IMG/VR virus record: IMGVR_UViG_3300037466_003379
Coordinates: 1 to 64,000 of that record
DNA: 64,000 nt
Direction: 5' to 3' (one strand)
From: a virus
This document shows, one piece after another, positions 30,752-64,000 of the stretch. Both the position numbers and the translations under genes were made by a program. Below the pieces are notes generated by a model. The model did not search any database. It was not told where the DNA came from and saw nothing but the letters and a program-made list of their open reading frames with translations. Position 1 is the stretch's first letter, and every line of letters begins with the position of its first letter.

Positions 30752-32443
30752 TCAGGCAGCCTCGCGCTGCTGCCCCGAACCCTTCACGTACGGCTTCCCG
30801 CGGCCGCCCGGCTGCGAGATCAAGCCGCCCTCTTCGAGCGCCCGCAGGTCGTTCTGGATCGTCTTCTGCGACGGCACCGGATCCCAGGTCGCGGACGCGG
30901 CGAGCACCGCGGCCAGCTTCGTCGGCCCGTCACCCACGACCTCGAGGATGAGGGCGCGCCGCCGCTCCACCGCGGACGGCTCCTCCACCACCGCAACCGG
31001 CGCAGACTGTCCGCCGTACTCCGCGGGCGTCTTCTTCGGCTCCGGATCGTCATCCGACACAGCGCCGTCCAGACGGTCCCGCCACATCGCCAGGTCGTAC
31101 CCTCCAGCCTCCGCGTCCGAGGGGTGCAGCGGCGAATCTGGGGCCGCCTGGGCGTAGCCGAACGGGTCCGCCACGACCCAGGTGCGGTGCATGGCCCGGC
31201 GCCCGTCCGGCCCGTACAGGTACGTCATGCCCTGCAGCGGGATCGTCTCCCCCGGGCGCGCCGGGTCGGGCTGAGTCTCGGGAAGCTCGTGCGGCTCGCA
31301 CCCGGCCATGCCGCCGGCGAAAGCCATGCCCTGCTCCGTGCTCGACCTCGTCTTGAAGGCGAGCACGTTGCCGGCGACCAGGCGGCGCAGGTCCGCGGAC
31401 CCCATCTCGTCCTGGCCGAGGTTCTGCCCGCACAGCACGAGCGCGACGCCGAGCGAGCGGCCGCCCTGCGCGATCTCGATGCCGAGCCGGATGGCCTCCT
31501 GCTTGAGCGCGACCCCGCCGGGCAGCTCGAGGAGCCGCTTGAGGAACTTCGGCCACTCGTCGACCACGCACCGCACGTAGCCGCGCCGCGCGAGCACCGG
31601 GTCGAAGTGCGAGATCCCGCGCCGCTGGCGGCCGCGGTCGTCGACCCACTCAAGGTTCGAGAGGTCGTACTCGCGGCGCCGCATGATCCGGACCGTGCTC
31701 CGGAGCATCCGCATGATGTTCCGCGGCGTCTCCGCGTAGTAGCCGAGAGCCTTGGACCGCTTCCACTCCGGGAAGCTGTTCCCGCCCTTCCCGTCACCGA
31801 GGAAGGTGTGGAACAGGGCGCGCTCGACACCGTCCGCGTCGACGAACCGCGGCCGCGACGTCTCGGACAGCATCGTCTGCAGGAACGCCGTCTTCCCCAT
31901 GCCCGGCGCCCCGGCGATCAGCCAGTTCACCGCGCCCGACCCCGGGATGTAGAGCTGCATGTGCGAGGTCATGCCGTCGACGTACCGGCCCGGCTTGTAG
32001 AGCCCCGTCGCCGGGTCGAACGTGAGGCCCGGCCACACCAGGTCCTCGAACAGCGGGTTCTCCTGCATCACCGTCACGACCGCGCGGGCGGCGTTCCGGT
32101 CGTGCGTCGGCCGGATGTCGACCGCATCGGCCGGCAGGAGCAGCGCGGCGGTGAGCTGCGGGGCGATGTTCATCGCCGAGCGCGTGGTCTGCCGTCCGCC
32201 TGGCGCGCACACGATCGTCGCCCGCCACCCGTCGGGGATCTGCTCGACGTCGACCAGCCGCGAGTTCGGCAGCAGCCCGTTCGGCCCCGACACGTGGGCC
32301 GCCCACTGGGCCTCCAGCCACGTCGCGTACTCGTCGAGCTCGGGCTCGAGCACGGGCGCCGGCGCGCGCAGCTCCCACCTCCGCCAGTACGGCCACGACG
32401 CCGCGGCCATGCCGAGGGCGCAGAGGGTGTCCGGATCAAGCAT
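30752..32443 (-). CDS. traB: TraB-like FtsK/SpoIIIE conjugative DNA translocase
   Basis: LIAGAPGMGKT, LGDGKGG, VVDEW, GRSLGVAL...Q, C-terminal wHTH. Confidence 0.82.
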   Translation of the reverse strand: MLDPDTLCALGMAAASWPYWRRWELRAPAPVLEPELDEYATWLEAQWAAHVSGPNGLLPNSRLVDVEQIPDGWRATIVCAPGGRQTTRSAMNIAPQLTAALLLPADAVDIRPTHDRNAARAVVTVMQENPLFEDLVWPGLTFDPATGLYKPGRYVDGMTSHMQLYIPGSGAVNWLIAGAPGMGKTAFLQTMLSETSRPRFVDADGVERALFHTFLGDGKGGNSFPEWKRSKALGYYAETPRNIMRMLRSTVRIMRRREYDLSNLEWVDDRGRQRRGISHFDPVLARRGYVRCVVDEWPKFLKRLLELPGGVALKQEAIRLGIEIAQGGRSLGVALVLCGQNLGQDEMGSADLRRLVAGNVLAFKTRSSTEQGMAFAGGMAGCEPHELPETQPDPARPGETIPLQGMTYLYGPDGRRAMHRTWVVADPFGYAQAAPDSPLHPSDAEAGGYDLAMWRDRLDGAVSDDDPEPKKTPAEYGGQSAPVAVVEEPSAVERRRALILEVVGDGPTKLAAVLAASATWDPVPSQKTIQNDLRALEEGGLISQPGGRGKPYVKGSGQQREAA

Positions 32444-32777
32444 CGGCAGCCACCCACAGAGCCCAGACCGCGGCGAAGCCGCCGAACAGAGCGGCCTCCC
32501 CGGGGTGGCGGCGCCGCATCCGGGCCTGCCCGACCAGGACGACGGCGGCGATCAGGACGAGCATCGCGACCGACCACGGCGACTGGCCGTGCCGGGCGGC
32601 GAGGCGCTCGACGAGCGTGCAGCCCCACACGAGGGCGATCCCGACGAGCGGAGCCAGGCCGCGGCGCGCACGGAACAGGCGCGACCGCAGCCGGGACATC
32701 GCGGACGGCTTCGGCTCCGGCATCTGCGGGACGACGTAGATCGGGGCGGCGGGCTTGGCCTTCGACCAGAGCGCCAC
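32436..32777 (-). CDS. Membrane protein, possibly the separated N-terminal TM part of TraB
   Basis: Three hydrophobic segments; 8-nt overlap with traB. Confidence 0.6.
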   Translation of the reverse strand: MALWSKAKPAAPIYVVPQMPEPKPSAMSRLRSRLFRARRGLAPLVGIALVWGCTLVERLAARHGQSPWSVAMLVLIAAVVLVGQARMRRRHPGEAALFGGFAAVWALWVAADA

Positions 32778-32866
32778 GGCTGCTCTCCTTCGTGCTGGTG
32801 GCCCGACCCGGCCCCGGGGAAGCGGGGTCGGGTCGGGCCGGTGGGGTGGTGCCCTGCGAACAGGTC

Positions 32867-33931
32867 TCAGGCGGACTGATCCAGGTAGGCGTCACGCTGT
32901 GCGGCGTGCTGCGCCTCCTGGTGCGCGGCGAGCAGGTTCCCGTGCCGCATGTGCACGTTCGTCTGCACCGTCGCGGCGTGCTCCTGCAGCTCGACGAACT
33001 CGGCCAGAGACGCCGGGTCCATGTCCTTCGCCGACAGGCCCTCACCCATCGCGGCGAGGTCGGCATTGAACTGGTTCACCAGCCGGTAGAAGGCGGGGAT
33101 CGACGCGGCGTCCCGGTCGACGTTCGCGTTGGTGTTGGTCGGTGCAGTCACGGGGGTGGTCCCTTCGGTGTCAGCCGCCGGGGCGGCCGGGGAGGTGGTC
33201 GGGTCGGTCGGTTGGGAGGCGCCGTCGCCGCCCTTCGGGGTCGGTGTCGGCTGCGGTGCAGCCGGGGTCGGATCGGCCGTACGGCCCAGATCGCGGGGGC
33301 CGCTGTTCGGAGGAGTGCCGTCCGGCGTGCGGGGCCGGTTCTGGACTCCGCATGCGCACTGGTCGCACTGGCAGCCCCGGGCCCCGTCGGTGTCGCGGTC
33401 GAGCGACAGGTGCCCGCACGCCGGGCAGGTGACGCGCCGGTCGCGCCGCCGGACCGCTGCGGATCGGTGGTCGGTGCCGGGCGGGAACCGGCGGCGGTCC
33501 CACTCGGCCTGCTGCAGCTCCCGCTGCCGCCGCCGCTTCGCCGCGGTAACCGCGTCAGAGCCGTAGTCGGCCACGTCCTCGACGCGGTCACGGAACCAGG
33601 CGAGCGGGCCGCGCTTCCCGCTGGACGAGCCGAACGGCTGAGCCTGGCGCATCCGGCGCCTGGACGACGCGGCCGGCCTGGACGACGTCCAGCCTCCAGC
33701 CGTCCCGCCTCCAGGGCTGGACGTCCAGCCGGAGCTGGACGGGCTGGACGTCCTGGACGATCCAGTCCCACGGGATCCAGCCGTCCCGCCCGCCCGGGTC
33801 CGACCGGAGCTGGACGAGCTGGACGACCCGTTCCCGGTGATCAGCCCTCCAGGCGTCCCGAGGGCGTCCAGGTGTCCAGTCGCCCGCATGATCCAGTAGG
33901 CGATCAGGACGCAGCCGAAGAACGGGTCCAT
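32867..33931 (-). CDS. Transfer-region protein (low complexity, Cys cluster)
   Basis: TGATG coupling; contains CTGGACG repeats. Confidence 0.65.
   Translation of the reverse strand: MDPFFGCVLIAYWIMRATGHLDALGTPGGLITGNGSSSSSSSGRTRAGGTAGSRGTGSSRTSSPSSSGWTSSPGGGTAGGWTSSRPAASSRRRMRQAQPFGSSSGKRGPLAWFRDRVEDVADYGSDAVTAAKRRRQRELQQAEWDRRRFPPGTDHRSAAVRRRDRRVTCPACGHLSLDRDTDGARGCQCDQCACGVQNRPRTPDGTPPNSGPRDLGRTADPTPAAPQPTPTPKGGDGASQPTDPTTSPAAPAADTEGTTPVTAPTNTNANVDRDAASIPAFYRLVNQFNADLAAMGEGLSAKDMDPASLAEFVELQEHAATVQTNVHMRHGNLLAAHQEAQHAAQRDAYLDQSA
33621..33871. repeat. CTGGACG heptamer cluster (~9 plus, ~3 minus)
   Basis: Counted by eye. Confidence 0.8.
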
Positions 33932-34341
33932 CAGCGCACCGCTCCGGACACGAGGTTGGACGCCCCGTTGGACAGGCTGTGCGACGCCGTCGAGACGATG
34001 CCCGGGATGGTGCCGCCGACGCTGGCCGCGACGATCGGCAGGAGCAGCGCGGCGACGGCGGTCATGCGGGTCGCGGCGCCCTTGTGCTTCGGCCACAGGT
34101 CGTGGACGACGACGAACAGCAGCACGATGAACAGCAGCACGCCGATCCCGGCGCCGATGATTGCGCCGGCGAGGCCGAGGAACATCGACAGCAGGCTCCC
34201 CAATCCGCCACCGGCGAATGCACCCCCTGCGGCGAACCACAGAAGCGCCGTGAATTTCGGCATCTTCCGCTTCCACATCAGAAGTGCGCCGAGGACCAGG
34301 AGCACGAGCCCGGTCAGCGAGAATCCGAGTGCCTGGAGCAT
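33931..34341 (-). CDS. 4-TM Spd-like membrane protein
   Basis: Hydrophobic, coupled within tra operon. Confidence 0.65.
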   Translation of the reverse strand: MLQALGFSLTGLVLLVLGALLMWKRKMPKFTALLWFAAGGAFAGGGLGSLLSMFLGLAGAIIGAGIGVLLFIVLLFVVVHDLWPKHKGAATRMTAVAALLLPIVAASVGGTIPGIVSTASHSLSNGASNLVSGAVR

Positions 34342-34841
34342 CAGCCGGTCACCCCTCCGACGGTCTTCACGATGAGCACGAGCGCGATCAGTGCGGCCGC
34401 GACTCCGGCGCGGGCCTTCCGCTCGAACAGGAACGCGGCGAAGTACAGGACGACGGTCGCGGGAACGGACCCGACCGCGAAGGGCAGGTCGAGGAGCGCG
34501 CACTCCCAGCGGCGGCCCGCCGCCCAGGACTCGCTGACGGCCTCGCAGTGGTAGCTGAGGACCTCCGCGGGGCTCGGGGGGCGCTGCTCCCAGAACGTGC
34601 CCGCCCGGCCGTCCTCGGGGGCGCTGGGGGCCTCCCCGGTGCCGCGGTGGCCGTCCCGGAACGGGCTGGAGAGCGCGCCCCAGACGGAGCGGCCTCGCGT
34701 ACGCGTGCGCGCGGGCGCGCGCGGCCCCGCGTTGGACCCCTCGGGGGTGGGGGCCTCCGGGTTGCCGTTGCCGTTGCCGTTGCCCCCCTCCCCCGCGGGG
34801 TAGGCGGGCTGCCAGGTCGACTCGTCGGCGGTCGTGGTCAT
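34341..34841 (-). CDS. Membrane protein of tra/spd operon
   Basis: FWEQRPPSPAEV; C-terminal TMs. Confidence 0.6.
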   Translation of the reverse strand: MTTTADESTWQPAYPAGEGGNGNGNGNPEAPTPEGSNAGPRAPARTRTRGRSVWGALSSPFRDGHRGTGEAPSAPEDGRAGTFWEQRPPSPAEVLSYHCEAVSESWAAGRRWECALLDLPFAVGSVPATVVLYFAAFLFERKARAGVAAALIALVLIVKTVGGVTG

Positions 34842-35089
34842 GCTGCCGATCCCTTCGTCTCGATCGCGGCGATGAGGCCGCCGATGGTCGTGAGCGCTTC
34901 CTCGGCGAGGGCCTGGACGAGCGCGGGCGGTGCGTGGCGGATGACGGCGGCGAGGTGCTCGCCGCGGACCCGGACGGCGGCGGCCGGGTCGGGGGCCTGG
35001 GCGACCCGCTCGTCGAAGAACGTGGTCCGGCGCGTGGCCGCGGCGACGGGGCCGAGGACCTTGCCGGTGATCTTGCGCCTTCCGGGCAT
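34838..35089 (-). CDS. Hypothetical protein
   Basis: GGAG RBS, coupled. Confidence 0.6.
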   Translation of the reverse strand: MPGRRKITGKVLGPVAAATRRTTFFDERVAQAPDPAAAVRVRGEHLAAVIRHAPPALVQALAEEALTTIGGLIAAIETKGSAA

Positions 35090-35103
35090 TTCTCCGCCTT
35101 TTC

Positions 35104-35331
35104 TTATTTACCCGAAACGTAATTGCCGATAACATTTCCGCGGGAATCGAGCAATTCAAGCTCGTATTCGCCGACCCGGCCGCGGCCATCCCGACCAGCC
35201 ACGTTCTCCAGCGCCCTCCGCAGAACCTCGTCCGAGTCGCCCTTCGCGAAATCGACGTGGATCATGATTTCGCCGCGCTCGATCATGTAGCCATTTCGGC
35301 GGACCCGGCATTTCACCAGCTCGGCCGCCAT
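35104..35331 (-). CDS. Hypothetical protein, lower GC
   Basis: TGATG coupling (MAAELVKCRV). Confidence 0.55.
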   Translation of the reverse strand: MAAELVKCRVRRNGYMIERGEIMIHVDFAKGDSDEVLRRALENVAGRDGRGRVGEYELELLDSRGNVIGNYVSGK

Positions 35332-36086
35332 CACACGGCCGCCTTCGTGAGGTGCTCGTCGGCGATCTTGATCAGCCGCTTCACCGGGCCCTCGCCGAGC
35401 CCGAGCTCCTGCATCAGCTTCGTCCGGCCGAGGCCCTCTCGGCGGAGCTTCACCGCCCGCTGGATCGTCACCCGGTCGAACTCGTCCGAGTCGCCCGGGA
35501 CGTCGTCCTGGACGTCGCCGGGACGTCCAGCGTCCAGCTCGTCCAGCTCGTCCCGTCCAGCGTCCAGCTCGTCGGGGGCGGAGCCGTCCAGCTCCTCCTG
35601 CTCGTCGCCGTCCAGCTCGTCCAGGTCCGGCCGTCCAGCGTCCAGGTCCTGGACGTCCAGCCGTCCAGCGTCCAGCCGTCCAGCGTCCTGGGCCTCCGGA
35701 CCGTCCATGTGCAGGACGGTCGCCAGGACGGGAGGCGGCAGGATCGCCAGCCCGACCGACGCGACCACCCAGGCGCCGCGTCCAGCGTCCACCGCGGCGG
35801 CGGCGTGCTCCAGCGCGTTGCCGACCATCGACACGAAGATCAGCGACAGCGACAGCCGACGGCCGACGGTCCGCTCGGTCGCAGTCGAGCTGCGCCGGCG
35901 CCAGGCGATCGTCCCGGCGAGCGCGCCCGCGTCGATCAGGACGGGCACGAGCCACGCGGAGTGCTCGGCGACACCGACGCGGACCGCGAGCGCCGCCAGG
36001 GCGTCGAAGCTCAGCCACGCACAGGCGACCGCCACGGCGAGCCGCGAGAGCGCCAGCGGGGCGCGGTCAGTGATCTTGCTCCACAC
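35331..36086 (-). CDS. DUF2637/Spd-like membrane protein with C-terminal HTH
   Basis: AWLSFDAL..LA...G.....AWLVPVLIDAG; SMVGNALEH; LGRTKLMQELGLG. Confidence 0.78.
   Translation of the reverse strand: MWSKITDRAPLALSRLAVAVACAWLSFDALAALAVRVGVAEHSAWLVPVLIDAGALAGTIAWRRRSSTATERTVGRRLSLSLIFVSMVGNALEHAAAAVDAGRGAWVVASVGLAILPPPVLATVLHMDGPEAQDAGRLDAGRLDVQDLDAGRPDLDELDGDEQEELDGSAPDELDAGRDELDELDAGRPGDVQDDVPGDSDEFDRVTIQRAVKLRREGLGRTKLMQELGLGEGPVKRLIKIADEHLTKAAV
35508..35785. repeat. CGTCCAG heptamer cluster (~15 copies; reverse complement of the 33.6-kb cluster motif)
   Basis: Copies at 35524, 35531, 35540, 35554, 35561, 35585, 35609, 35618, 35632, 35639, 35654, 35662, 35669, 35677, 35779. Confidence 0.85.
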
Positions 36087-36150
36087 GGTGGAACCTCTCG
36101 GGGTTGCGTGCGCGCGGTCGCGCACGGGCGCGTGCACGCGCGAGGACGGG

Positions 36151-36555
36151 TCAGGCAGCAGCACGCCGGCGACGGCGGACGCTGCGGATCGGAATGACGG
36201 GGGCGAGGCCCTGGGAGGCCGGAGGGGTCGGGCCGACGCGGAGCCACGCCCGCAGCTCCGGGCCGATGCGGTACCGCCAGACGACGAGGAACACCGCCGT
36301 CCCACCGGACGCCCACGCCCCGGCGGTCCCACCGAGGTGCGCCAGCTCGTACGTGGACGCGGCGATCCACAGCACGCACGCCGGGGCCGGGCTCATGCCG
36401 TCTCCGATCGGAGCGACCTTCGGGACGGGCCCGAACATCCGGACCAGCCGCCGCGCGGTGAGCCGCCGGGCCGACCGGCGGACCGCTCGCAGCTCGGGGC
36501 CGTCCGGCACGTCGGCCAGGCAGCGGCCGTCCTCGTCGCGCTCGCGCTCGATCAC
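36151..36555 (-). CDS. Membrane protein
   Basis: GTGA coupling. Confidence 0.5.
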   Translation of the reverse strand: MIERERDEDGRCLADVPDGPELRAVRRSARRLTARRLVRMFGPVPKVAPIGDGMSPAPACVLWIAASTYELAHLGGTAGAWASGGTAVFLVVWRYRIGPELRAWLRVGPTPPASQGLAPVIPIRSVRRRRRAAA

Positions 36556-36839
36556 AGCTTCGCCAGCTTCCAGGTGCCCAGCAGCGCGGCAGGAGCGAAC
36601 AGGGCGAACGGCGCGGCCAGCGCCACCGGCAGGCCGCCGGTCGCGGTCGCCACGTGGTCGCCGATCAGGCCGAAGAAGGCCAGGACCAGCGCCGCCATCA
36701 CCCACCGCACGACCGCGGCCTCCGGCAGCGGCGGCGCCGGGGCGCACGGGTCGAACGGCTCATCGTCATCGTCGACGGTCCAGGGGTTGAGGTCGTCGGG
36801 CTGGGGCTGGGGCTGGGCTTCGGGGTCCGTGCAGGTCAC
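36552..36839 (-). CDS. Membrane protein, first of tra/spd operon
   Basis: GGAGG RBS; two TMs. Confidence 0.6.
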   Translation of the reverse strand: MTCTDPEAQPQPQPDDLNPWTVDDDDEPFDPCAPAPPLPEAAVVRWVMAALVLAFFGLIGDHVATATGGLPVALAAPFALFAPAALLGTWKLAKL

Positions 36840-37082: not shown

Positions 37083-37469
37083 TTGAAGATCACGACCCTG
37101 CGCACCCTCGCAGGCACGCCAGGCTGCTCGGACTTTCCGACCTGCCCCGGCGTGCACGACCTCGACACGGACCCGGAGCACCGCTACGTGATCGCGAAGA
37201 CCATCACCGACCCGACCGAGCTGGCCGCCTTCGCGGGCGAGCTCGGCGACGGCGAGGTCCCCGGCTGGATGCCTGCAGGCTTCCTTCCCGCCGGCAACGA
37301 GGTCTTCACCCGCACCCGCCGCCTCTGGCAGTCGGGTATGCGCTCGGACCGCGACTACGTGATCACCACGCTGGTCACCGATGCCGCCGTGCTGCAGGAG
37401 TTCGCGCCGCTGATGGCCGCGGACGAGCACCTCGGTACGGTGCCCGTCCGCGCGCTGCTGGAGGTGTGA
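37083..37469 (+). CDS. Hypothetical protein with internal duplication
   Basis: C....TCPGV; YVI..T.TD...L..F unit twice; TTG start after GGAAGGGG. Confidence 0.65.
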   Translation: MKITTLRTLAGTPGCSDFPTCPGVHDLDTDPEHRYVIAKTITDPTELAAFAGELGDGEVPGWMPAGFLPAGNEVFTRTRRLWQSGMRSDRDYVITTLVTDAAVLQEFAPLMAADEHLGTVPVRALLEV

Positions 37470-37472
37470 CCG

Positions 37473-38036: not shown

Positions 38037-38042
38037 CCTGCG

Positions 38043-38894: not shown

Positions 38895-38973
38895 TCCGGC
38901 GCGCCCTCTGGCCAGCGGGCTGAGGCTGGGTTACATTATACCGGTAAACCGGACCGCCGACTTAGGAGGGCTC

Positions 38974-39333: not shown

Positions 39334-39364
39334 CCCCTCCCCGCTCCGCTCCGGCGGTAGCGGT

Positions 39365-39640: not shown

Positions 39641-39674
39641 CCCCAACGCGCCCGACCCGACCCCGAGGTGATCA

Positions 39675-40839: not shown

Positions 40840-40843
40840 GCCT

Positions 40844-40877
40844 CTGACCAGCATGTTGCACTGCAACACTGCAACAC
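40844..40877. repeat. Candidate parS-R
   Basis: CTGACC-agca-TGTTGCACTGCAACA-CTGCAACA matches 39365-39389. Confidence 0.65.
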
Positions 40878-54416: not shown

Positions 54417-54475
54417 GGCCCACACCTCCCTTCGTGCTCGAGGTGGGGGCCGTGGCGGTCAGCCACAGGCTGAGG

Positions 54476-57800: not shown

Positions 57801-58544
57801 GCCACCCGCGGCCGCGGCCGCGAGGCCCATCATCGCGAACTGGCCGCTCGTCAGGCCGACCACCGCGGCGCTGTCGGCGAAGCTGGCCTTGAAGGTCCCA
57901 GCCGCCACGGACAGGGTGCCCATGCTCGCGGCAGTCCCGGCCATCGTCGTTCCGACGAGGGCGTTCGCTTCGGCGGCGCGAGCCTCGGCCGCCTCCATCG
58001 CGGCCAGGTCCCCGACGACCTTGTCTCGCATCAGGCCGTAGGCGGCTGCGGTCTCCTCGGCGGCCGTGGTCGACTTCGCCGCGAAGGCCTCGGCGCTGGT
58101 CGCGGCCTCGCTGTTCGCGGCGACGAACCGGCCGTTGGCGTCCCGCATCCGGCCGGACGCGTCGACCCACGTCCCGGCCGCGGCCTCCGCTCCGGCGGCG
58201 ATCCCGGCCCCGGCGGCGGCGGTGGCCTCCGCGAGTCCGAGCTCCGCGGCGACGGCGGCCTCGATCTCGGCCTGGATCGCCGCCATCGCGGCCCCGGCCT
58301 CACCGGCGGACGCGGTCATCTCCGCACAGGCGGCAGCCCAGGTGCCAGCGGCGGCCTCCGCGGAGGTGCCGAGCATGGCGTTCTGCTCGGCGACGCGGGT
58401 GACCTCCGCGGAGACGCCCTGGAGCGACCCGGCGACCTGAGTGGCCATCCGCTCGCCGGCGGCACCGGCCTCGGTGAAGCCCGCGGTCATCGGGGCGGAC
58501 TCGGCGCGGAGAGTTACGTACAGATCGGCGACCTCATCGGACAC
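54879..58544 (-). CDS. Tape measure protein
   Basis: ~1220 aa Ala-rich, TP901-like core, periodic W/F repeats, GIASPS motifs. Confidence 0.92.
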   Translation of the reverse strand: MSDEVADLYVTLRAESAPMTAGFTEAGAAGERMATQVAGSLQGVSAEVTRVAEQNAMLGTSAEAAAGTWAAACAEMTASAGEAGAAMAAIQAEIEAAVAAELGLAEATAAAGAGIAAGAEAAAGTWVDASGRMRDANGRFVAANSEAATSAEAFAAKSTTAAEETAAAYGLMRDKVVGDLAAMEAAEARAAEANALVGTTMAGTAASMGTLSVAAGTFKASFADSAAVVGLTSGQFAMMGLAAAAAGGIAVKMAGDYDQATMRLVTSANESRQNLDMVRQGMLEMAGQVGYSADELATAMYKVESGGQHGADGLKVLKAAAEGAKTENADLTTVADAVTTALIDYHLKADDAATVTSKMVQATASGKMTFEELSGSLSSVAPLASAAHISLDDMLGTLASMTSHGISAQQATQNMADAIRHLQSPTAGMRQEMATLGIDASDVAAKLGERGLAGTMQMLQQAISKSMPPGSEKVFLDLKNAVSQSTPAVQGLAQKVMDGSISMAAFTKQAKELDPISAKQATSFATLAGQTHQLGQAHMSGEQVMQTYGQAMQKAMGDATGLKVALMTTGENADYTNDAIKNISGATSEAGGHVKGWAEIQSEFNTKLSQAKDGLGALAISIGEKLLPVASKIVGVFADATKWMTEHQTVAIIVAGIIGVVLVAAFVALGIAAAQAAIGVIAATWPILAIIAAVALLAFGIYELIQHWQGVADFFSGLWDKVKSAFTTAVNWCGDRISDLVGFVKSIPEKIGQGLSSLGGMIQRALANVWDWLTTPFRKGAELVKTIMSKSPGEWGHIIGEKLGELARTLVDKAKEMWHGFTTGVTNAWNETVAWFKALPGRIKDFFVGAGNWIADKAKELWHGFTTGVTNAWNETVAWFKALPGKIKDFFVDAKNWLVDKAKELWDNFTTGLKLEWEVTVQWFKDLPGKIKAFFTEAPQWLYEHGKNILTGLWKGFTDWVSNIWNGITDFIKGFIDGFKSGFGIQSPSTVFSEIGGYIIEGLWNGLKNMWNSFWGWASGLPQTVINLFSGAANWLVSAGHDLLVGLWNGITSMTSWVWDKLTGWASSLWGGVKSALGIASPSTIAHESGMWLMKGLANGIDDHADLAVTAAQSVADRVVSATQSTNRNLQALGQTAAALGTDGAAMPVTVRPGALQAASPAVLPGLSQGATNVTVVHLNPTVQGNVWTTKDLVTELQQELVRHGIRNTQNGTNYTGFGLG
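55860..56115 (-). repeat. 132-bp (44-aa) tandem duplication in tape measure
   Basis: WHGFTTGVTNAWNETVAWFKALPG.IKDFFV twice; aagaaatccttgatc at 55873 and 56005. Confidence 0.85.
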
Positions 58545-58583
58545 CGGGCGCACCCCCTCTGAAATGGGACGGAGGTGCTGGCA

Positions 58584-58624: not shown

Positions 58625-59023
58625 ATGGAGCTGATCGCCAAGGGGCGACTGGGCGCGTCCGTCAGGTTCGACGGGCAGACCGTGACCGTCGCGAAGTCCA
58701 ACCGGCTGATGCAGGGCTACGGGGAGCGCTCAGCGCACATCTCGCAGATCGCCGGCGTGCGCTGGCAGAAGCCGGGCCTGATCACCAGGGAGGGCTACAT
58801 CGGGTTCACGGTCGCCGGGGTCGTCGCGCCGCGCGCCCGGATCGGATCGCAGATCAACGCCGCCCGCGGCGACGACTGGCACGTCACGTTCTTCCGCGGC
58901 CGCCTGGCCGAGTTCGAGGCCATCAGGGACGCCGTGCAGGCCGCGGTGAGCGCCCTACACCAGGGGCCGACCGCTGGGCCGCTGGGCGGCAACTGGGGGC
59001 CGCCTGGAGAGGCTCGGCGCTAG
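58625..59023 (+). CDS. DUF4429-like protein, antisense within tail operon
   Basis: VRFDGQTVT...I..I.GV.W.KPGL...GYI.F...V.F......F. Confidence 0.72.
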   Translation: MELIAKGRLGASVRFDGQTVTVAKSNRLMQGYGERSAHISQIAGVRWQKPGLITREGYIGFTVAGVVAPRARIGSQINAARGDDWHVTFFRGRLAEFEAIRDAVQAAVSALHQGPTAGPLGGNWGPPGEARR

Positions 59024-59487
59024 CCGACACCCCACGCGGCGCCCATGATCTCCTTGTAGATCGTGTAGACGGACACCCGGCCGACCATCCGCAGCGCCGG
59101 CACGAGGAACGGGAACCGCTTCCGGCTCTTCCCGACCCCGGTCACCTCGAGGTAGTAGGCGTACATCGACGACGAGGTGCGGCGGTCGTAATAGGGGTAC
59201 AGGCCCGGGGCCATGCCGACCTTGACCGCCCAGCCGATCGCGGTGCGCTCCACCCCGGAGTGCGTGATCGACCGCACCAGCGACCCGGAGATCCGCGCGG
59301 GACCTTCCGGGTCGCCGGGCGACGGCGTGGGCGTCCGGTAGGGGTGCTCCCCGTTCGACGCGTTGATCTTCGCCTGCCGCTCGACGGCGAGCGCGACCGC
59401 GGTCAGCCCCACGGACGCTTTGAGCTCACCCTCGGCAGCGAGCCGAGCCATGACCTCCGACATCACCCCGGGCAGCAGCTCAGGCAC
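59020..59487 (-). CDS. HK97 gp10-like tail completion protein
   Basis: PARISGSLVRSI...YAYYLE.....RFPFL.PA. Confidence 0.7.
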   Translation of the reverse strand: MPELLPGVMSEVMARLAAEGELKASVGLTAVALAVERQAKINASNGEHPYRTPTPSPGDPEGPARISGSLVRSITHSGVERTAIGWAVKVGMAPGLYPYYDRRTSSSMYAYYLEVTGVGKSRKRFPFLVPALRMVGRVSVYTIYKEIMGAAWGVG

Positions 59488-59752
59488 GTCCCGCCTCCGC
59501 TTCTCGTTTCGCCTGCTCGTGGGCGTCGGCCTCGGCCTGGCGGCGCAGCTGGATGAAGTCCCAGCAGTACCGGCGCACGTAGGCCGGGGTCCGTTGCAGG
59601 GCCTCGAACGACCAGCCCATCTCGCGCATCAGCTCGAAGTCGATGAACTCGGCCGGGGGAGCACCGGAGCCCCAGGTGCCGTCGTAGATGGACTCGACGG
59701 CCAGGTAGACGTCCTCGAAGTAGGGCTCGCCAGGCCCTACTGAGGGTTTACC
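59480..59752 (-). CDS. Tail assembly chaperone, -1 frame extension
   Basis: Frame after G GTA AAC: KPSVG...LMREMGWSFEALQRTPAYVRRYCWD. Confidence 0.7.
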   Translation of the reverse strand, partial: GKPSVGPGEPYFEDVYLAVESIYDGTWGSGAPPAEFIDFELMREMGWSFEALQRTPAYVRRYCWDFIQLRRQAEADAHEQAKREAEAGRA

Positions 59753-60132
59753 GCCTCCGTCATGCGCTTCCCGATGGTGTTGACGATCTCCATCGGCAGC
59801 TTCCGCACCATCTCCACGGTGGCCGGGTGAGTCTGGTCGACCTTCGGCAGCAGCGGCTGGTCGAGCTGCTCGCCGGTGTCGTAGTCGATGGCCGGCGCGG
59901 TGGCGTCGTAGACGTGCCACGCCACGACCAGCCCGGCGATGGTCTCGTACATCGCCTCCACGGCCTCGGCGGCGTCGGCCGGTCGCCCGTTCTCGTCGAG
60001 CTTGAGCGGCCGCGGCTGCACCTTGTCCGGGGGCTGCTGCTTCGGGTTGAGGATCGCGACCCAGACCTTGTCGTCGTCCTCGGCCAGGTCCGGGAAGTCG
60101 AGGTGAATGATGCGGTTGGCGTAGCCAGCCAT
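59737..60132 (-). CDS. Tail assembly chaperone
   Basis: AAGGAG RBS, MAGYANR; follows major tail gene. Confidence 0.75.
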   Translation of the reverse strand: MAGYANRIIHLDFPDLAEDDDKVWVAILNPKQQPPDKVQPRPLKLDENGRPADAAEAVEAMYETIAGLVVAWHVYDATAPAIDYDTGEQLDQPLLPKVDQTHPATVEMVRKLPMEIVNTIGKRMTEAVNPQ

Positions 60133-60288
60133 GAGGGGTGACTCCTTGCAGGTGAGAGGGGGGTGGAGCAGGTCGGAGAGGGCCGATGCGAGCGCCATGC
60201 CGAGCCACAGCCCAGCGAGGACGTGCACCGGTGCGCTCCCGGCCGCCAGGAGCCCGGCGGCCAGGAGCGCGACGGTCAAGCGCAACGC

Positions 60289-61446
60289 TCAGAACGCGGT
60301 CGTGCGGAAGTTCTTCAGCACCGCCGAGACGGAGCCGCCGTCGGTGGTGTTGTAGATGCCGGACAGCGAGAAGGACGCCTGCACGTAGCTGCCGCCGATC
60401 TCGCGCTTGCCCTTCACCCAGCCGGACTTGCTCATGGTGAGCACCAGGGACTGGCCGCCGACGGCGGTCGGCTGCTGCAGCGTCGCCGTCGCCGGGAGCT
60501 GCGTGTACTGGGTGTAGAGGTTCAGGTCGGTCTGGTTCTCGAAGATCGCCTTGTACGAGCCGTCCACGGTGATCGGGCCCTGGAAGTTCTCCCGGGCCGC
60601 CTGCGTGCCGTCGCTCGAGTGGATCGGGTCGACCGTCCGCTTGAGGTTCAGGTCGTACGACAGGCCGCGGGTGGAGGCGCCACCGGCGTTCGTCATCGTC
60701 CACTGCCAGCCCAGTACCGGGGCCGTCGAGGTGAAGGTCGGGGTCATCGCCGAGGCGGCGATACCGGGCAGCGTGGTGAACTTCGCCGAGCTCGTCACCG
60801 CGCCCTTCGGGTCGATCTTGAGGCTCAGGTCGGAGATCGCCGCGTAGGAGTACGACAGGGTCTGCAGGGTGTCGAACACGGTGATCGACAGCGTCGGGTT
60901 CGGCGCCGCGGGGTTCTGCTTGAAGGTGTGCGTGGTCTGCGAGACGACCGTGGCGCCGGAGGTGTGGGCCTTCGTCAGGCCGACGGCGGCGGAGTCGCTG
61001 GTCGTGACCGTCAGCGTGTACGGCCCGGAGCCAGTCACGGCGGTGACCTTCGCGTACTCCAGGTTGTTGCCGGTGTCGATCGTGATCCACGAGTTGGCCG
61101 CGATCGTCGCCGCCGTGCTGATCGTCGTCGCGCTCGCCGACGACGACGACGACAGCGTCGTCGAGACACCCGGCGTGATCGTGTCCGGGCCGATCATGCT
61201 CGCGAGGAAGTGCCCGACCAGGTCCGGGTAGGCGAGCATGTCGATCGACCAGTGCGCCACCACGGGCCCCTGGTAGACGCCCTGCAGGACGGAGTCGTTC
61301 GCCCGGATCGACTCGTCCTTGATCTCCGAGTACTGGTCCTCGAAGTCGGCCTTCGTGAACGGGATGTAGGACGTCGGCACGACATACGTGCCGGGCGTGG
61401 ACTCCTTCGCGATGCCCAGAACTGCGAGCCGAGAGAGCTGCGTCAT
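60289..61446 (-). CDS. Major tail tube protein
   Basis: LGIAKESTPGT; position; S/T-rich insert. Confidence 0.82.
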   Translation of the reverse strand: MTQLSRLAVLGIAKESTPGTYVVPTSYIPFTKADFEDQYSEIKDESIRANDSVLQGVYQGPVVAHWSIDMLAYPDLVGHFLASMIGPDTITPGVSTTLSSSSSASATTISTAATIAANSWITIDTGNNLEYAKVTAVTGSGPYTLTVTTSDSAAVGLTKAHTSGATVVSQTTHTFKQNPAAPNPTLSITVFDTLQTLSYSYAAISDLSLKIDPKGAVTSSAKFTTLPGIAASAMTPTFTSTAPVLGWQWTMTNAGGASTRGLSYDLNLKRTVDPIHSSDGTQAARENFQGPITVDGSYKAIFENQTDLNLYTQYTQLPATATLQQPTAVGGQSLVLTMSKSGWVKGKREIGGSYVQASFSLSGIYNTTDGGSVSAVLKNFRTTAF

Positions 61447-61727
61447 CGGGAACCACCCTTCCGGGTCGTCGTGGACTTGCGGGTCACCGCGGGCGCGTCG
61501 GCGGCCTCGTGCTCGCCGTGGCCGTCACCGGCGGTCTGCTCGGGCTCGACGGGCACCGGCACGTGGTCGCCGGTCGCCTCACCGTCGGTCTCCTGCTGGT
61601 CGGCCCCGACGGGCATGAACCCGGCGAGGAGCTGGTCGTGGTCGATCTCGCCGCCTGCCGGCACAGTGACCGGTGGGTCGAGCGTCGGAAGGTCGAGCGG
61701 GTAGCCGCTCGTGTTGCGCTGGCGCAT
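61443..61727 (-). CDS. Small virion-cluster protein
   Basis: GGAGG RBS (MRQRNTSG). Confidence 0.6.
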   Translation of the reverse strand: MRQRNTSGYPLDLPTLDPPVTVPAGGEIDHDQLLAGFMPVGADQQETDGEATGDHVPVPVEPEQTAGDGHGEHEAADAPAVTRKSTTTRKGGSR

Positions 61728-61758
61728 GGGGTTGGTCGGGTCCTCCCGGTCCGGGGCG

Positions 61759-62259
61759 TCAGGCCGTGAAATCGCGGTCGTCTGCCAAGTAGGTGATGTC
61801 CGCCCTGAGTGCGGCCGGAGAGGAGCCGGAGTGCTGCTCGGGGTCTGAAAAGGACACGTTGATGCGGCTGCCGTCGGGGGCTTCCGCGACGGACAGGAAC
61901 CGGCCGCCGTGGGTGTGGTCCATGAGGGTTCCGCGCACGCGCTCGAGTACGAGGTCGACGGCCTCGTCGAACGCCTGCTGCTCGTCCTCCCACAGCCCGG
62001 ACTGCGTCGTGGTGGCACCGATCGGCCACAGGCACTTGAGCCGGAAGGTGTGGGTCTGGAGCTTCCGCTGGTTGGACAGCCGGGTCTCGGCGAACTGCGG
62101 ACGCAGCACGTAGATCGCCGTCTTGTGTCGGGGTGGCGTGCGCGGCCAGTACGCCTGCACGACGTCCCAGGGGCCGCCGTCGGCCTTGAGTAGCGACGGG
62201 AGCCCGTCGCCCATGCTGGTCGTGCAGAGCCACTCCGCTTCGCGCTGCTGCGGGGTCAC
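61759..62259 (-). CDS. Tail terminator-like protein
   Basis: WDVVQAYWPR...DHTHGGRFLSVAE; position. Confidence 0.65.
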   Translation of the reverse strand: MTPQQREAEWLCTTSMGDGLPSLLKADGGPWDVVQAYWPRTPPRHKTAIYVLRPQFAETRLSNQRKLQTHTFRLKCLWPIGATTTQSGLWEDEQQAFDEAVDLVLERVRGTLMDHTHGGRFLSVAEAPDGSRINVSFSDPEQHSGSSPAALRADITYLADDRDFTA

Positions 62260-62261
62260 GG

Positions 62262-62771
62262 TCACCTCCTCCTGCGGGCCCACACGCGGTGGGCGCGGGT
62301 GCGCTGGACGTGGCGGAGGCGGCCGCGGCCCTTCCGGACCCGCGCGGGGCGGAGGCGGCCGACGTAGGAGTGGTGGTAGCCGGCCCCAGTCGAGATCAGG
62401 GCGAACGCGTTCTTGTGGTTCCCGTGGCCGTGGTGTCCGGAGATCATGCGGCCCCCGCCGGGCGCCCTGACGATGTCCGAGCGGCGCGCACCGCCCCGCA
62501 GGTTCTTCCGGGTCGCGGCGACCTGCGCGCGGCTCCTGGGGGCGGTCTGGGCGGCACGACGCCGCGGCGACGAGGCGCGCTCCCGCCGGGACTTCGGCTC
62601 CGCCTGCGAGCGGTGCGAGGTGGCCGCGTACCGGGCCCGCAGCGCGGCTGCGATCTTCGCCCGGGTCTCGTCGGACATCGCGTGCCCGCGGTGCGGGTGC
62701 CGCTTCCCCTTGAGCGCCGCGCTGATCTTCGCCCGGGCCGCCGCCGACATCGGGCCGCGCGCGACCGCCAC
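62262..62771 (-). CDS. Very basic protein with two NUMOD3-like motifs
   Basis: MSAAARAKISAALKG; MSDETRAKIAAAL; Arg/His-rich. Confidence 0.6.
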   Translation of the reverse strand: MAVARGPMSAAARAKISAALKGKRHPHRGHAMSDETRAKIAAALRARYAATSHRSQAEPKSRRERASSPRRRAAQTAPRSRAQVAATRKNLRGGARRSDIVRAPGGGRMISGHHGHGNHKNAFALISTGAGYHHSYVGRLRPARVRKGRGRLRHVQRTRAHRVWARRRR

Positions 62772-62774
62772 CGG

Positions 62775-63449
62775 CTACACCCCGTTCCGCGTGTAGGGCA
62801 CCAGCCATGACACGGCGAGGGCCTCGAGCGATCCGGGGTCGTGCTGCCCGGACCGCTCCGGGTCCAGCTCCCGGCACAGGATCGCGGCCGCCATGTACTT
62901 GCAGGCGCGCCGCAGGTCCGCCGGGATCGTCTGGTAGCCGCCGCTGTAGGTGACCTCCACGATCGAGCCGATCGGGAGGAACGTGCCGATGTTGAACCAC
63001 AGGAGCCCGGTGTCCGGGTAGGGCCCGGCCATCGGGCTGATCTGGTTCTGGGAGCCGCCGTAGGCGTCCCGGATCACGATGTGCACGTTCGAGTAGGTCC
63101 ACATCTCCGGGAAGTGCGCGGCGTGTTCCCGCAGCCACAGCTTCCGGACCATGCCGCCGACGGAGGCGCCGAGGGCGTTGGCGTAGCTGGTGCCGAGCGC
63201 GGCCTGCAGGTCGAGCTGCAGGCCCGTCCCGGTGGCGCTGAGCTCGTCGGGGTCGACACCCTCGGCGCGGTGGGACTCGGTGGCCGTGAACGGGACCAGC
63301 CGGCGGCCGGTCTCGGTCTCGCACGCCCTGGTCGCCTCGACGAGGATCTCGCCGAGCGCCTCGGGTTCGAAGTTGCGGGTCAGGTCGGCGAAGGCGCCGG
63401 TCTGCAGCTCCGCGGAGGTGCACAGCGGCGTCGGGTTGTCCACGGCCAC
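62775..63449 (-). CDS. Head-to-tail adaptor
   Basis: ATRACETETGRRL..F; VTYSGGYQTIPADLRRAC. Confidence 0.78.
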   Translation of the reverse strand: MAVDNPTPLCTSAELQTGAFADLTRNFEPEALGEILVEATRACETETGRRLVPFTATESHRAEGVDPDELSATGTGLQLDLQAALGTSYANALGASVGGMVRKLWLREHAAHFPEMWTYSNVHIVIRDAYGGSQNQISPMAGPYPDTGLLWFNIGTFLPIGSIVEVTYSGGYQTIPADLRRACKYMAAAILCRELDPERSGQHDPGSLEALAVSWLVPYTRNGV

Positions 63450-63456
63450 CGCGGGC

Positions 63457-63789
63457 TCAGTCCTTCGCGGGTGCGCGGCGGGCGCGCGGCTTCGGGGTCG
63501 GCTTCCGCTCGACGGGCTCGTCGGCGACGTCGTCCTCGGCCGGGCCGTTGGGCTCCTCGTCCGGGTCGCCGTCCTGCGGGTCGTCGCCCTCGCCAGGCTC
63601 CTGGCCGCCGTCGTCGTCGCCGTCCGGCTCCTCGACGGGCTCTGGCGCGTCGACCACGCTGATGCGGGCGTCGGTGATCTCGACGAGCGAGGCGACCAGA
63701 TCGTCGGCGACCTCGATGACGGACCCGTCCTCCGGCCACACGTGGCCGAACGAGTCACCGCCCGCCTTCTCCTTACGCAGCCATGCCAC
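63457..63789 (-). CDS. Small acidic post-capsid protein
   Basis: GAGGAG RBS; position. Confidence 0.65.
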   Translation of the reverse strand: MAWLRKEKAGGDSFGHVWPEDGSVIEVADDLVASLVEITDARISVVDAPEPVEEPDGDDDGGQEPGEGDDPQDGDPDEEPNGPAEDDVADEPVERKPTPKPRARRAPAKD

Positions 63790-63820
63790 TGCGGTTCTCC
63801 TCTCAGGGGTCCCCGGACGC

Positions 63821-63859
63821 CCCGCGCCTGGCCCAGCACGAAGCTGGGCCGGGCGCGGG
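63821..63859 (-). terminator. Hairpin after capsid gene
   Basis: cccgcgcctggcccagc-acgaa-gctgggccgggcgcggg. Confidence 0.55.
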
Positions 63860-63872
63860 ACTGGGGAGCGGA

Positions 63873-64000
63873 TCAGACGAGGTGGGTGTCCACGTTGTAG
63901 AGACCGCCGATGTAGCGCGGCGCCCGGAGGGCGACCACGGTGTCGGTCTGCAGCGCGAACGGCAGCGTGTCGGGAGCCGCCACGGTGGTGGCGACGTTGA
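63873..64000 (-). CDS. C-terminus of probable major capsid protein (partial)
   Basis: NVATTVAAPDTLPFALQTDTVVALRAPRYIGGLYNVDTHLV*; position upstream of adaptor. Confidence 0.6.
   Translation of the reverse strand, partial: NVATTVAAPDTLPFALQTDTVVALRAPRYIGGLYNVDTHLV

Follow-up and report, generated by a model that had tools for sequence, protein, structure and literature searches.

A self-closing actinomycete phage genome that encodes plasmid partition and a two-piece TraB-type DNA translocase

Does a single replicon of a high-GC actinomycete combine virion production, plasmid partition and TraB-type conjugation? The question is raised by the window analysed here, the first 64 kb of an IMG/VR virus contig of 104,105 bp. 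The first-pass annotation described tail and lysis genes contiguous with parA, its partner gene and a TraB/Spd-like operon, found no integrase in the window, and proposed a conjugative phage-plasmid lineage, probably in a filamentous actinomycete. Gene calling recovered all of these parts as intact, high-GC3 ORFs at the places given, and the window indeed lacks an integrase, with one tyrosine recombinase lying elsewhere on the contig.

The ends of the contig were compared with each other by BLAST, and two features define the limits of the molecule:

1–50: chimeric assembly tip, foreign to the element (nt 1–62 match elsewhere)
51–177: closure point, with 127 nt of terminal identity

The terminal identity is 100% (51–177 = 103979–104105), reaches the exact contig end, and extends past a promoter–operator unit of ~110 nt into both flanking genes. 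Nt 1–62 exactly match a glycine-rich gene found on L084 and L085, two unrelated IMG/VR contigs, and diverge afterwards, the join crossing a 12-nt low-complexity stretch of GGCGGT type. After trimming of the 50-nt tip, the sequence closes into a cycle of 103,928 bp. The genome is thus complete and self-closing, and it is that of a tailed phage, with a high-GC actinomycete as its predicted host. Circularly permuted virion DNA would equally be expected to give a circular assembly.

It is very improbable that the juxtaposition of modules is artefactual, whether through misassembly or through a prophage lying beside a separate conjugative island (AICE). The tip does constitute one chimeric join, and IMG/VR gives the contig a linear topology and a completeness of 88%; against this stand the end overlap, the uniform GC and GC3 across modules, and the absence from the contig of host flanks and, between modules, of host genes, a second recombinase or an att-like boundary. 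Furthermore, the order TraB operon–regulators–ParA–tail–capsid–terminase–recombinase is repeated, with the split TraB described below, in a contig from two other metagenomes (G001/G002) at ~50% protein identity, which argues against misassembly. The two conditions that the first-pass annotation had regarded as fatal to its proposal, chromosomal integration with flanks and misassembly between modules, were tested, and neither was borne out by the self-closing contig and its recurrent gene order.

The virion and lysis module comprises a full, intact siphovirus set:

42711–43787 (−): endolysin with an Rv2525c-like glycoside hydrolase domain (Pfam PF08924, E 1e-15; PHROG endolysin, E 1.5e-21)
42711–45497 (−): lysis cassette of the endolysin and four small, holin-like membrane proteins (transmembrane segments)
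45494–54859 (−): distal tail, fibre and baseplate genes (PHROG 5313, 20173 and minor tail)
54879–58553 (−): tape measure protein of 1224 aa (PHROG tape measure, E 1e-85; Pfam PhageMin_Tail)
59020–63789 (−): tail assembly, tail tube and head–tail connector genes (pAmyja1 match; head–tail adaptor PHROG 442)
63873–64000 (−), continuing to 65261 past the window: major capsid gene, 3' part (PHROG major head, E 1e-29)

Genes for the protease, portal (PHROG, E 3e-42) and large terminase (TerL, E 4e-38) follow directly after the capsid gene, up to 73013. Among cultured relatives, the module is closest to a circular plasmid of Amycolatopsis japonica, pAmyja1, with which it is syntenic at 40–65% identity. 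The distal tail block, which includes a 959-aa CBM-bearing protein and a 503-aa minor tail protein, is syntenic with this plasmid at 30–41% identity, and the tail tube (60289–61446, −) is 60% identical to its "phage tail tube protein". A repeated early-gene promoter–operator box is missing from 29–85 kb, so that the tra and par block is under separate regulation.

Replication and partition functions were assigned to the following features:

14575–15714 (−): replication initiator with a lambda O-like/DnaD-like N-terminus (PHROG replication initiation O-like, E 1.8e-18)
39370–39640: centromere-like array of the hexamer TGTYGC/GCRACA (repeat families D7, I1 and I3)
39675–40463 (+): short, type Ib-like ParA partition ATPase (Pfam AAA_31, E 1e-45, CbiA and MipZ; NCBIfam ParA_partition and RepA)
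40453–40839 (+): ParA partner of 128 aa (overlap with the parA stop; GC3 0.87; sequence read directly)

The initiator adjoins a low-GC strand-switch region at 15.7–17.7 kb, a candidate origin in which GC drops to 0.67 and a gap of 1.4 kb is free of genes. The best plasmid matches of ParA (42%) are in Mycobacterium plasmids. Its partner, which found no family match in domain and family profile searches, has a proline-rich N-terminus and a ribbon-helix-helix (RHH)-like C-terminal segment and is a candidate centromere-binding protein; an RHH-like ORF likewise follows ParA in G001. The hexamer occurs in 13 copies within 300 bp upstream of parA, whereas no other 300-bp stretch of the 104 kb contains more than three, and the array is a parC candidate. 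Three further copies lie at 40854–40876.

Upstream of the partition locus lie a regulator block and, divergent from it, a nine-gene operon (g60–g52) that ends with a TraB-type FtsK motor:

30694–30750: hairpin between the convergent g51 and traB-C (27-nt arms, 89% complementary, 3 nt apart)
30752–32443 (−): TraB-C (g52), soluble FtsK-type dsDNA translocase (profile and model matches)
32436–32777 (−): TraB-N (g53), membrane ORF of 113 aa with an 8-nt overlap with the traB-C start
32867–36839 (−): seven genes upstream of traB-N, namely g54 (32867–33931), g55, g56, g57, g58, g59 and g60, whose stops and starts overlap or abut
37083–39333 (+): divergent regulator block of g61, a DUF6879 protein, an XRE-HTH/DUF5753 (WhiJ-like) regulator and g64 (Pfam)

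TraB-C carries a Walker A motif (GAPGMGKT, 178–185), a Walker B motif around E296 and a C-terminal winged helix at about 490–555. Its matches to Pfam FtsK_SpoIIIE and NCBIfam plasmid_TraB are weak, and PHROG FtsK/SpoIIIE-like is reached with E 6.5e-11. Using hhalign, the TraB family profile was matched to pIJ101 Tra at 98.8% (E 4e-17) over 406 columns spanning the pre-ATPase, ATPase and winged-helix parts, with the homology running along the entire motor, and to pZL12.71c, from the Streptomyces plasmid-phage pZL12, at 96%; matches in the PDB were FtsK and EccC. An AF2 model of TraB-C (pLDDT 90.8) had the FtsK motor as its top Foldseek match (E 5e-15). Among 376 homologues, a single one was named by its source, as "S-DNA-T family DNA segregation ATPase FtsK/SpoIIIE", and PF01580 was matched by 24 of the 40 that were aligned. 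Those homologues that lie on plasmids come from Streptomyces and Kitasatospora, and one sits 3' of a GntR gene, as in pIJ101. Since tblastn returned no match among 50,697 phage records, TraB is of plasmid type and not an FtsK-like gene of lytic Streptomyces phages.

A new point is that, as read from the sequence, this TraB comes as two ORFs, one small and membrane-bound, the other a soluble ATPase with a winged helix. TraB-N and its G001 counterpart aligned with columns 42–123 of the family profile (88.8%, E 2.5e-6, hhalign), TraB-C occupies columns 130–644, and G001 has the identical 8-nt overlap between the halves; TraB-N corresponds to the membrane domain that one-piece TraB proteins have at their N-terminus. 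The hairpin beyond traB-C is probably a bidirectional terminator.

The eight small ORFs 5' of traB-C (32436–36839, −) are translationally coupled and mostly have hydrophobic segments. Of these, g58 matches DUF2637 (Pfam, E 3e-6), and g54–g57 are kept beside traB in G001/G002. The upstream proteins showed no similarity to pIJ101 SpdB and no detectable homology to known Spd proteins, so that the proposed TraB/Spd-like operon holds for TraB by profile homology and for Spd by position and membrane character only. The regulator block (DUF6879, E 1e-35; HTH_31 plus DUF5753, E 1e-26; both Pfam) is at the same position in G001/G002. No GntR regulator of the TraR/KorA type adjoins the operon, and no clt repeat could be named on the element, the sole clustered 8-mer falling in coding repeats.

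These last two results, together with the proximity of the operon to the partition genes, would also fit a phage-plasmid whose TraB-like motor and membrane partner serve the prophage within one mycelium, without horizontal transfer, a reading that we consider unlikely. The pair might then move or clear plasmid copies across sporulation or vegetative septa into spores, as with SffA recruited by SmeA in Streptomyces, whose layout of a small membrane protein plus a soluble FtsK-like ATPase it recalls by analogy; alternatively, it might act in phage DNA handling or exclusion. FtsK-like genes of unassigned role also occur in lytic Streptomyces phages without conjugation (PMC11536984, PMC13587820). 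However, TraB groups with plasmid Tra/TraB proteins rather than with those phage genes and retains the C-terminal winged helix with which TraB proteins typically read sequence. Moreover, in Streptomyces the same TraB/Spd machinery serves intermycelial transfer as well as intramycelial spread, and the two roles are not exclusive.

One further gene bears on how the prophage persists:

84635–85663 (−): Xer-like tyrosine recombinase, outside the window and the sole one on the whole contig

The recombinase could be an integrase. It is accordingly conceivable, though rather doubtful, that the element is an integrative temperate phage whose circular assembly stems from virion or replicative DNA, and for which ParA and TraB, taken up from plasmids, are cargo (morons) with little or no maintenance role. 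Consistent with this, three capsid relatives are classed as "provirus", one of which (G005) is bordered by a recombinase and carries a TraB-family gene internally, and several relatives lack ParA and TraB; the lack of both in pAmyja1 and in a complete 78.9-kb DTR relative indicates that the module is accessory. On the other hand, the recombinase is homologous to that of pZL12, no att candidate was found at a tRNA or tRNA-like sequence, and the par locus includes a complete centromere array. In addition, the virion genes are still accompanied by TraB, ParA and the recombinase at ~50% divergence, and the relative pAmyja1 exists in an isolate as a closed circular plasmid.

We assign a probability of roughly 55% to the reading that the element is a temperate siphovirus of a mycelial high-GC actinomycete, a circular, partitioned plasmid-prophage that encodes a Streptomyces-type dsDNA transfer system. 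Gene content points to Pseudonocardiales or Streptomycetaceae as the most likely hosts, to a prophage that probably persists as a circular plasmid under active partition, and to conjugation. A distant relative has the same arrangement, so a single element probably spreads in three ways: in particles, through inheritance and by pumping of DNA from cell to cell. The conjugative phage-plasmid lineage of the first-pass annotation is partly supported: closure, synteny, pAmyja1 and the homology with pIJ101 Tra speak for it, and it is weakened by the Xer-like recombinase outside the window, by the capsid relatives classed as proviruses and by the missing clt, GntR and Spd homology. During lysogeny, the plasmid would replicate from the 16–17-kb region, ParA and its partner would segregate it on the repeat array, and the recombinase would resolve multimers. 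The membrane subunit g53 would anchor the soluble hexameric motor g52, and this two-piece TraB may recognise a putative clt repeat via its winged helix and pump the unprocessed plasmid-prophage into neighbouring hyphae, with the upstream membrane proteins acting in a Spd-like manner to spread it across septa. Upon induction, the same DNA would be packaged and released by lysis.

Compared with known systems, the element shares with pIJ101 Tra, which is experimentally essential, and with TraB of pSVH1/pSG5 the order of pre-ATPase domain, FtsK-type motor (Walker A and B) and C-terminal winged helix, as well as an operon with small membrane proteins. It differs in the low identity (~20%), the N-terminal membrane part as an ORF of its own, the membrane-protein genes upstream instead of downstream of traB, the lack of identified clt/TRS repeats and GntR repressor, and the location of TraB on a phage genome. 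A possible analogue of the two-piece TraB (g53/g52) is SmeA/SffA of Streptomyces coelicolor, in which a small membrane protein encoded just 5' of a soluble FtsK-family translocase recruits the latter to septa; that pair is chromosomal and has a role in sporulation, not transfer. Lytic Streptomyces phages (for example Geonosis, Jaresh and AndoPrime; PHROG 1358) likewise encode an FtsK-type P-loop domain, whereas the protein described here has TraB-type flanking domains and a plasmid-type neighbourhood.

Classical phage-plasmids (P1, N15 and SSU5 groups) are also temperate tailed phages that replicate and partition as plasmids and have a tyrosine recombinase (Cre in P1); the element adds a conjugation-type motor to this set. 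Surveys of these phage-plasmids seek conjugation by relaxase and mating-pair profiles (CONJscan) and are blind to TraB-type transfer (Pfeifer et al. 2021, PMC7969092). The proposed precedent, pZL12/phage ZL12 (GQ919031; Zhong et al. 2010, J Bacteriol 192:3747), which has a relative in pSLE1 of S. leeuwenhoekii (PMC4487206), requires its FtsK-like Tra gene, together with two genes adjacent to it, for conjugal transfer (PMC3583192). It too combines a siphovirus virion module, ParA and a tyrosine recombinase on a circular replicon (~90 kb) of a mycelial actinomycete, and it follows the three-mode logic proposed for the element. The lineages are nonetheless separate: 4 of 146 proteins match, at 31–34% identity, the one-piece, 725-aa pZL12.71c is related to the element's two-ORF TraB at profile level only (15% identity), and pZL12 has ParA/ParB and a GntR regulator, whereas the element lacks GntR and pairs its ParA with a small RHH-like protein. 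Finally, pAmyja1 (NZ_CP008954, 92.5 kb, circular) is syntenic in the virion module from terminase to lysin and in a ParB–PAPS reductase–ParB block, both at 40–66% protein identity, but the TraB operon, the regulator block and ParA are missing from it, its tyrosine recombinase is a different one, and it carries other cargo (P450, radical SAM). Its existence in a filamentous actinomycete that has been cultured shows that plasmid residence is possible for the phage family.

The IMG/VR entry is a 104,105-bp contig that is labelled "linear" with a CheckV completeness of 88%, and the window is its first 64 kb. The GC content was 66–76% along the whole contig, and gene calling by third-position GC yielded 146 ORFs (g-numbers below). 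Nucleotides 51–177 were identical to the last 127 nt (103979–104105), at which the contig ends exactly. The 50 nt ahead of this overlap were foreign: nt 1–62 matched exactly a glycine-rich gene on two unrelated IMG/VR contigs, followed by divergence, and the chimeric join at the tip passed through a 12-nt GGCGGT-type stretch. Removal of the tip left a plain 127-nt end overlap, the mark that a cyclic path leaves in a k=127 assembly graph, and the cycle measures 103,928 bp. A population variant or a missing segment, considered for the 50-nt offset of the overlap, was dropped because the tip is foreign sequence. As the overlap reaches past a repeated promoter unit and enters both neighbouring genes, it represents one locus rather than two copies of the repeat. 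Chromosomal flanks, named by the first-pass annotation as a refuting observation, were not seen: host genes were present at neither contig end and the contig closes on itself once the tip is removed. The closed assembly is compatible alike with a plasmid and with circularly permuted virion DNA and cannot tell the two apart. The closed-circle junction pattern matched no other IMG/VR contig, 24 kb queried by megablast against phage and plasmid sequences gave no match, and a search for Rfam families found none.

The virion, packaging and lysis set was complete, with all frames open. Read leftwards along the minus strand from 73 kb, its order was as follows.

Virion, packaging and lysis genes of the element, in order
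71439–73013, minus strand: large terminase, TerL (PHROG E 4e-38)
69727–71334, minus strand: portal (PHROG E 3e-42)
Between portal and major capsid, minus strand: two protease/morphogenesis-like proteins
63873–65261, minus strand: major capsid (PHROG E 1e-29)
After the major capsid, minus strand: head-tail adaptor and tail tube
54879–58553, minus strand: tape measure
After the tape measure, minus strand: distal tail genes
Between the distal tail genes and the endolysin, minus strand: four small membrane proteins
42711–43787, minus strand: endolysin

Outside the window, a block encoding a methyltransferase, a ParB-like, a PAPS-reductase-like and a second ParB-like protein adjoins the terminase (contig 74441–77359, or 11441–14359 of sub-region L004). 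The block is conserved in pAmyja1, a plasmid of Amycolatopsis japonica (53–66% identity), and probably serves in DNA modification or in association with packaging rather than as the partner of ParA. Convergent with the lysis genes lies a membrane-bound family-2 glycosyltransferase of the chitin/hyaluronan-synthase-like type (41136–42659, plus strand); a perfect 21-nt hairpin at 42665–42710 is its own terminator. A DpdA-family protein (24017–24862, plus strand; PF23859, E 3e-74), whose pAmyja1 homologue is 39% identical, suggests 7-deazaguanine modification of the phage DNA. Genes for a dCTP deaminase-like protein (8162–8914, minus strand) and a UvrD-type helicase (21788–23623, plus strand), together with a gene at 19973–20419 (plus strand) whose best tblastn match lies in a pAmyja1 gene annotated as a WhiB family regulator, are ordinary actinophage cargo.

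The partition locus is centred on a ParA gene (39675–40463) with a strong AAA_31/CbiA match. Its stop is overlapped by an ORF of 128 aa whose N-terminus is rich in proline and whose C-terminal segment looks ribbon-helix-helix (RHH)-like in sequence; this candidate partner matched no family. Thirteen copies of TGTYGC/GCRACA were counted in the 300 bp 5' of parA, compared with three at most in every other window of this size across the 104 kb, and three further copies lie 3' of the partner gene. Short ParA, iterated repeats and candidate RHH partner give the locus the predicted anatomy of type Ib. A lambda-O-like replication initiator (14575–15714) adjoins a low-GC strand-switch region. ParA, the candidate partner, the repeat array and the O-like initiator, plasmid replication and partition functions of the kind expected in a phage-plasmid, are all found on one self-closing contig. 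Also present, between the virion/modification genes and the recombinase region and outside the window, is a stretch of 2.4 kb without a called gene (contig 79421–81789; L004 16421–18789), which carries clustered GCGGTCGC and GCCGACGCG repeats and is a possible packaging site or origin.

The window holds no integrase, as first annotated, and the only recombinase of the contig is a tyrosine enzyme outside it (84635–85663); no serine recombinase was found in the contig. Its best matches were Xer proteins, it is 31% identical to pZL12.36c from pZL12, a plasmid-phage found in Streptomyces, and a role in multimer resolution is favoured over integration. The proposal that the transfer genes belong to a separate actinomycete integrative and conjugative element (AICE) conflicts with the lack of host flanks, with a tRNA search that found none, with the position of the TraB operon inside the phage genome 52 kb from the sole recombinase, and with the conserved virion synteny described below.

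The motor gene of that operon, g52 (30752–32443, 563 aa), has a Walker A motif, GAPGMGKT, at residues 178–185 and the invariant acidic Walker B residue E296. Its family matched the FtsK and EccC profiles of the PDB (E 1e-14 to 5e-21), and an AlphaFold model (pLDDT 90.8) gave the FtsK motor as its best Foldseek match (E 5e-15, TM ~0.6 on target), with the conjugation coupling protein TcpA as a second fold match. A C-terminal winged helix is formed in the model by helices within 491–538 and a strand at 552–554; winged-helix chains were matched at family-profile positions 565–640, and the region aligns with the C-terminus of pIJ101 Tra, a protein experimentally essential for transfer. Alignment of the family profile with pIJ101 Tra in hhalign reached 98.8% (E 4.4e-17) over 406 columns, spanning the pre-ATPase domain through the winged helix, and that with pZL12.71c reached 96% (E 5e-9). 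The NCBIfam model plasmid_TraB matched only weakly, at 24.9 bits against a cut-off of 800, so that g52 is not an equivalog of that TraB. An exhaustive HMMER search with g52 returned 376 homologues; PF01580 was matched in 24 of 40 aligned ones and winged-helix families in several, and among ten looked up, one was named by its source, as "S-DNA-T family DNA segregation ATPase FtsK/SpoIIIE". By tblastn, g52 matched 88 plasmids, nearly all from Streptomyces or Kitasatospora, at ~29% identity, and none of 50,697 phage records. PGAP labels the plasmid homologues "helix-turn-helix domain-containing protein", as it does the pIJ101 tra gene, and on one Kitasatospora plasmid a GntR gene stands upstream of the homologue, an arrangement shared with pIJ101. 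On the motor and winged helix, the plasmid homologues, the pIJ101 Tra profile alignment and the FtsK fold match, g52 is a TraB-family dsDNA translocase.

Ahead of its Walker A motif, g52 has no hydrophobic segment, and the N-terminal membrane domain is thus absent from the same polypeptide. Typical homologues span 640–780 aa and have one to four hydrophobic segments ~130–170 residues before Walker A, whereas g52 and its five nearest clusters measure 545–584 aa and have none. The missing domain is supplied by a separate ORF, g53 (32436–32777, 113 aa), which has the R..LAP motif and the helices of long-form TraB; its stop and the start of g52 overlap by 8 nt. Aligned with its counterpart in the related contig G001, g53 matched profile columns 42–123 (88.8%, E 2.5e-6), and g52 spans columns 130–644. 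The split is conserved in G001 with an overlap of 8 nt as well, so a sequencing frameshift and a pseudogene are both ruled out as its explanation. A quick tree placed the short-form TraBs in one clade (SH-aLRT 93) with one long exception; a search for the genomic contexts of three other short forms (P0004, P0005 and P0007) found none.

Upstream of g53 lie seven more genes of the operon, g60 to g54, in which stops and starts overlap or abut. Most encode membrane segments, and g58 has a DUF2637 domain. The description of this operon as "Spd-like", after the spread proteins of actinomycete plasmids, held for position and membrane character but not for homology to SpdA, SpdB or SpdB2 by BLASTP, Pfam or NCBIfam: g58 against pIJ101 SpdB was not significant in BLASTP, and the upstream proteins had no NCBIfam match. 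As the known Spd proteins belong to no Pfam family, DUF2637 failed as an Spd marker. A divergent block flanks the operon and encodes a DUF6879 protein and a WhiJ-like XRE/DUF5753 regulator. No GntR gene of the TraR/KorA type was found next to it, the only match being sub-threshold and located at 16.6 kb. On a Streptomyces sp. NBC_01707 plasmid (NZ_CP109191.1), a DUF6879 gene (56412–56864) and the top plasmid homologue of the TraB-like motor gene (63018–64283) are ~6 kb apart, and this neighbourhood may therefore occur on ordinary plasmids too.

A k-mer cluster scan for clt, the short-repeat site recognised by TraB, yielded only GCTGGACG/CGTCCAGC clusters inside coding repeats of g58 and g54, and no clt could be named. 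CGTCCAGC occurs in 12 copies in g58 (35524–35684), where it encodes acidic LDxxx peptide repeats, and its complement in six copies in the Ser/Gly linker of g54 (33620–33826), 1.8 kb away in the same operon. They may be nothing but coding repeats or may conceal a DNA site, for example clt, within coding sequence. An apparent 278-nt gap with GCTGGACG repeats (33653–33930) was rejected as clt, because a longer g54 runs through it and these bases encode its Ser/Gly-rich linker. Elsewhere, a conserved intergenic unit of ~110 nt recurs in many copies at ~80% identity (window 56–163 and near 5162, 27036 and 28978; contig 103984–104091). The AT-rich 11-mer box of this promoter-operator unit occurs 13 times, at 148–28984, 85892 and 104076, and is absent from the 29–85 kb interval. 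This places the tra and par block outside the control of the early-gene operator, which would fit expression in the prophage state.

The linkage of the modules was assessed in relatives. A 56.7-kb IMG/VR contig, G001, encodes a 50%-identical TraB homologue, and a second contig, G002, recovered from another metagenome, shares 99.997% identity with G001. The gene order of G001 is that of the element: traB-C, traB-N, homologues of g54–g57, DUF6879, a WhiJ-like gene, a g64 homologue, ParA (27% identical, with an RHH-like partner), tail genes, and then capsid (57%), portal (55%), terminase (49%) and tyrosine recombinase (35%). Misassembly and chance neighbourhood are excluded by this shared order, found in two other metagenomes at ~50% protein identity, which shows that the three modules have been inherited together. 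The capsid protein alone found no match in IMG/VR locus searches, and an alignment of three capsid proteins as query retrieved 59 related loci. Among 20 longer contigs of these capsid relatives, three had other TraB-family genes (G003, weakly, G004 and G005); a complete 78.9-kb relative with terminal repeats had none, and three contigs were classed as provirus. ParA was found in one (G001) of the five relatives searched (G001, G003, G004, G005 and G011). TraB genes are thus recurrent but accessory in this capsid-related phage family. Of note, G004 (100.3 kb; TraB-family gene at 98726–100129) and G005 (an IMG/VR provirus of 70.3 kb with a recombinase at its edge; positions of note 38986–40878 and 69891–70202) have one-piece forms that differ from g52, and G005 suggests that integrated phages with TraB genes exist too.

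The host signals were mixed, with best matches of the capsid to an Amycolatopsis plasmid, of DUF6879 to Pseudonocardia plasmids (52%), of TraB to Streptomyces plasmids and of ParA to Mycobacterium plasmids; they point to a mycelial actinomycete as the likely host, perhaps a member of Pseudonocardiales. The coexistence of virion, partition and TraB-type genes on one replicon, proposed in the first-pass annotation, was confirmed by their presence on a single self-closing contig. Its interpretation stood in every part that can be tested on sequence; conjugative transfer, the plasmid state and the host are what we infer from it. Extrachromosomal maintenance in lysogens would be in keeping, indirectly, with the lack of host flanks and with the relative pAmyja1 as a circular plasmid. 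To that annotation, the present analysis adds a closed genome, a split TraB, conserved synteny and a plasmid relative.

In a bolder reading, to which we assign a probability of about 0.4, the ~60 IMG/VR capsid relatives would form an actinomycete phage family that recruited TraB-type dsDNA translocases more than once, and in one sub-lineage a TraB encoded by two genes, one for a membrane anchor and one for a soluble motor, would have become fixed along with a partition locus. Its prophage-plasmid would spread within mycelia and from one to another while the donor survives and keep particles for dispersal, as a conserved three-route element of an origin independent of pZL12. Phage-plasmid surveys score conjugation by relaxase and mating-pair profiles and are therefore blind to single-protein TraB transfer, and pZL12 is the sole worked example of a virion combined with TraB-type transfer. 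That virion, partition and TraB genes have stayed together over ~50% protein divergence in a second lineage, unrelated to pZL12, suggests selection for the combination in mycelial bacteria, a setting in which lysis and cell-to-cell spread reach different recipients. The element is a natural case in which phage mobility and conjugative mobility, combined on one replicon, can be compared for cost and benefit, and the conserved anchor/motor split is a handle on the membrane targeting of TraB.

The element belongs to a known kind, the pZL12-type plasmid-phage. pZL12 (GQ919031; described in PMC3583192 and PMC4487206) is circular, 90.4 kb long, and has ParA/ParB, a GntR gene and a one-piece FtsK-like Tra, which, according to PMC3583192, needs two adjacent genes for transfer. 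Only four of the 146 proteins of the element match pZL12, at 31–34% identity, and the two are separate lineages with the same logic. The closed circular 92.5-kb pAmyja1 has a virion module and a ParB-PAPS reductase-ParB block that are syntenic with those of the element at 40–66% identity, but lacks its TraB and ParA block; residing in a culturable strain, it provides an experimental entry to the virion family.
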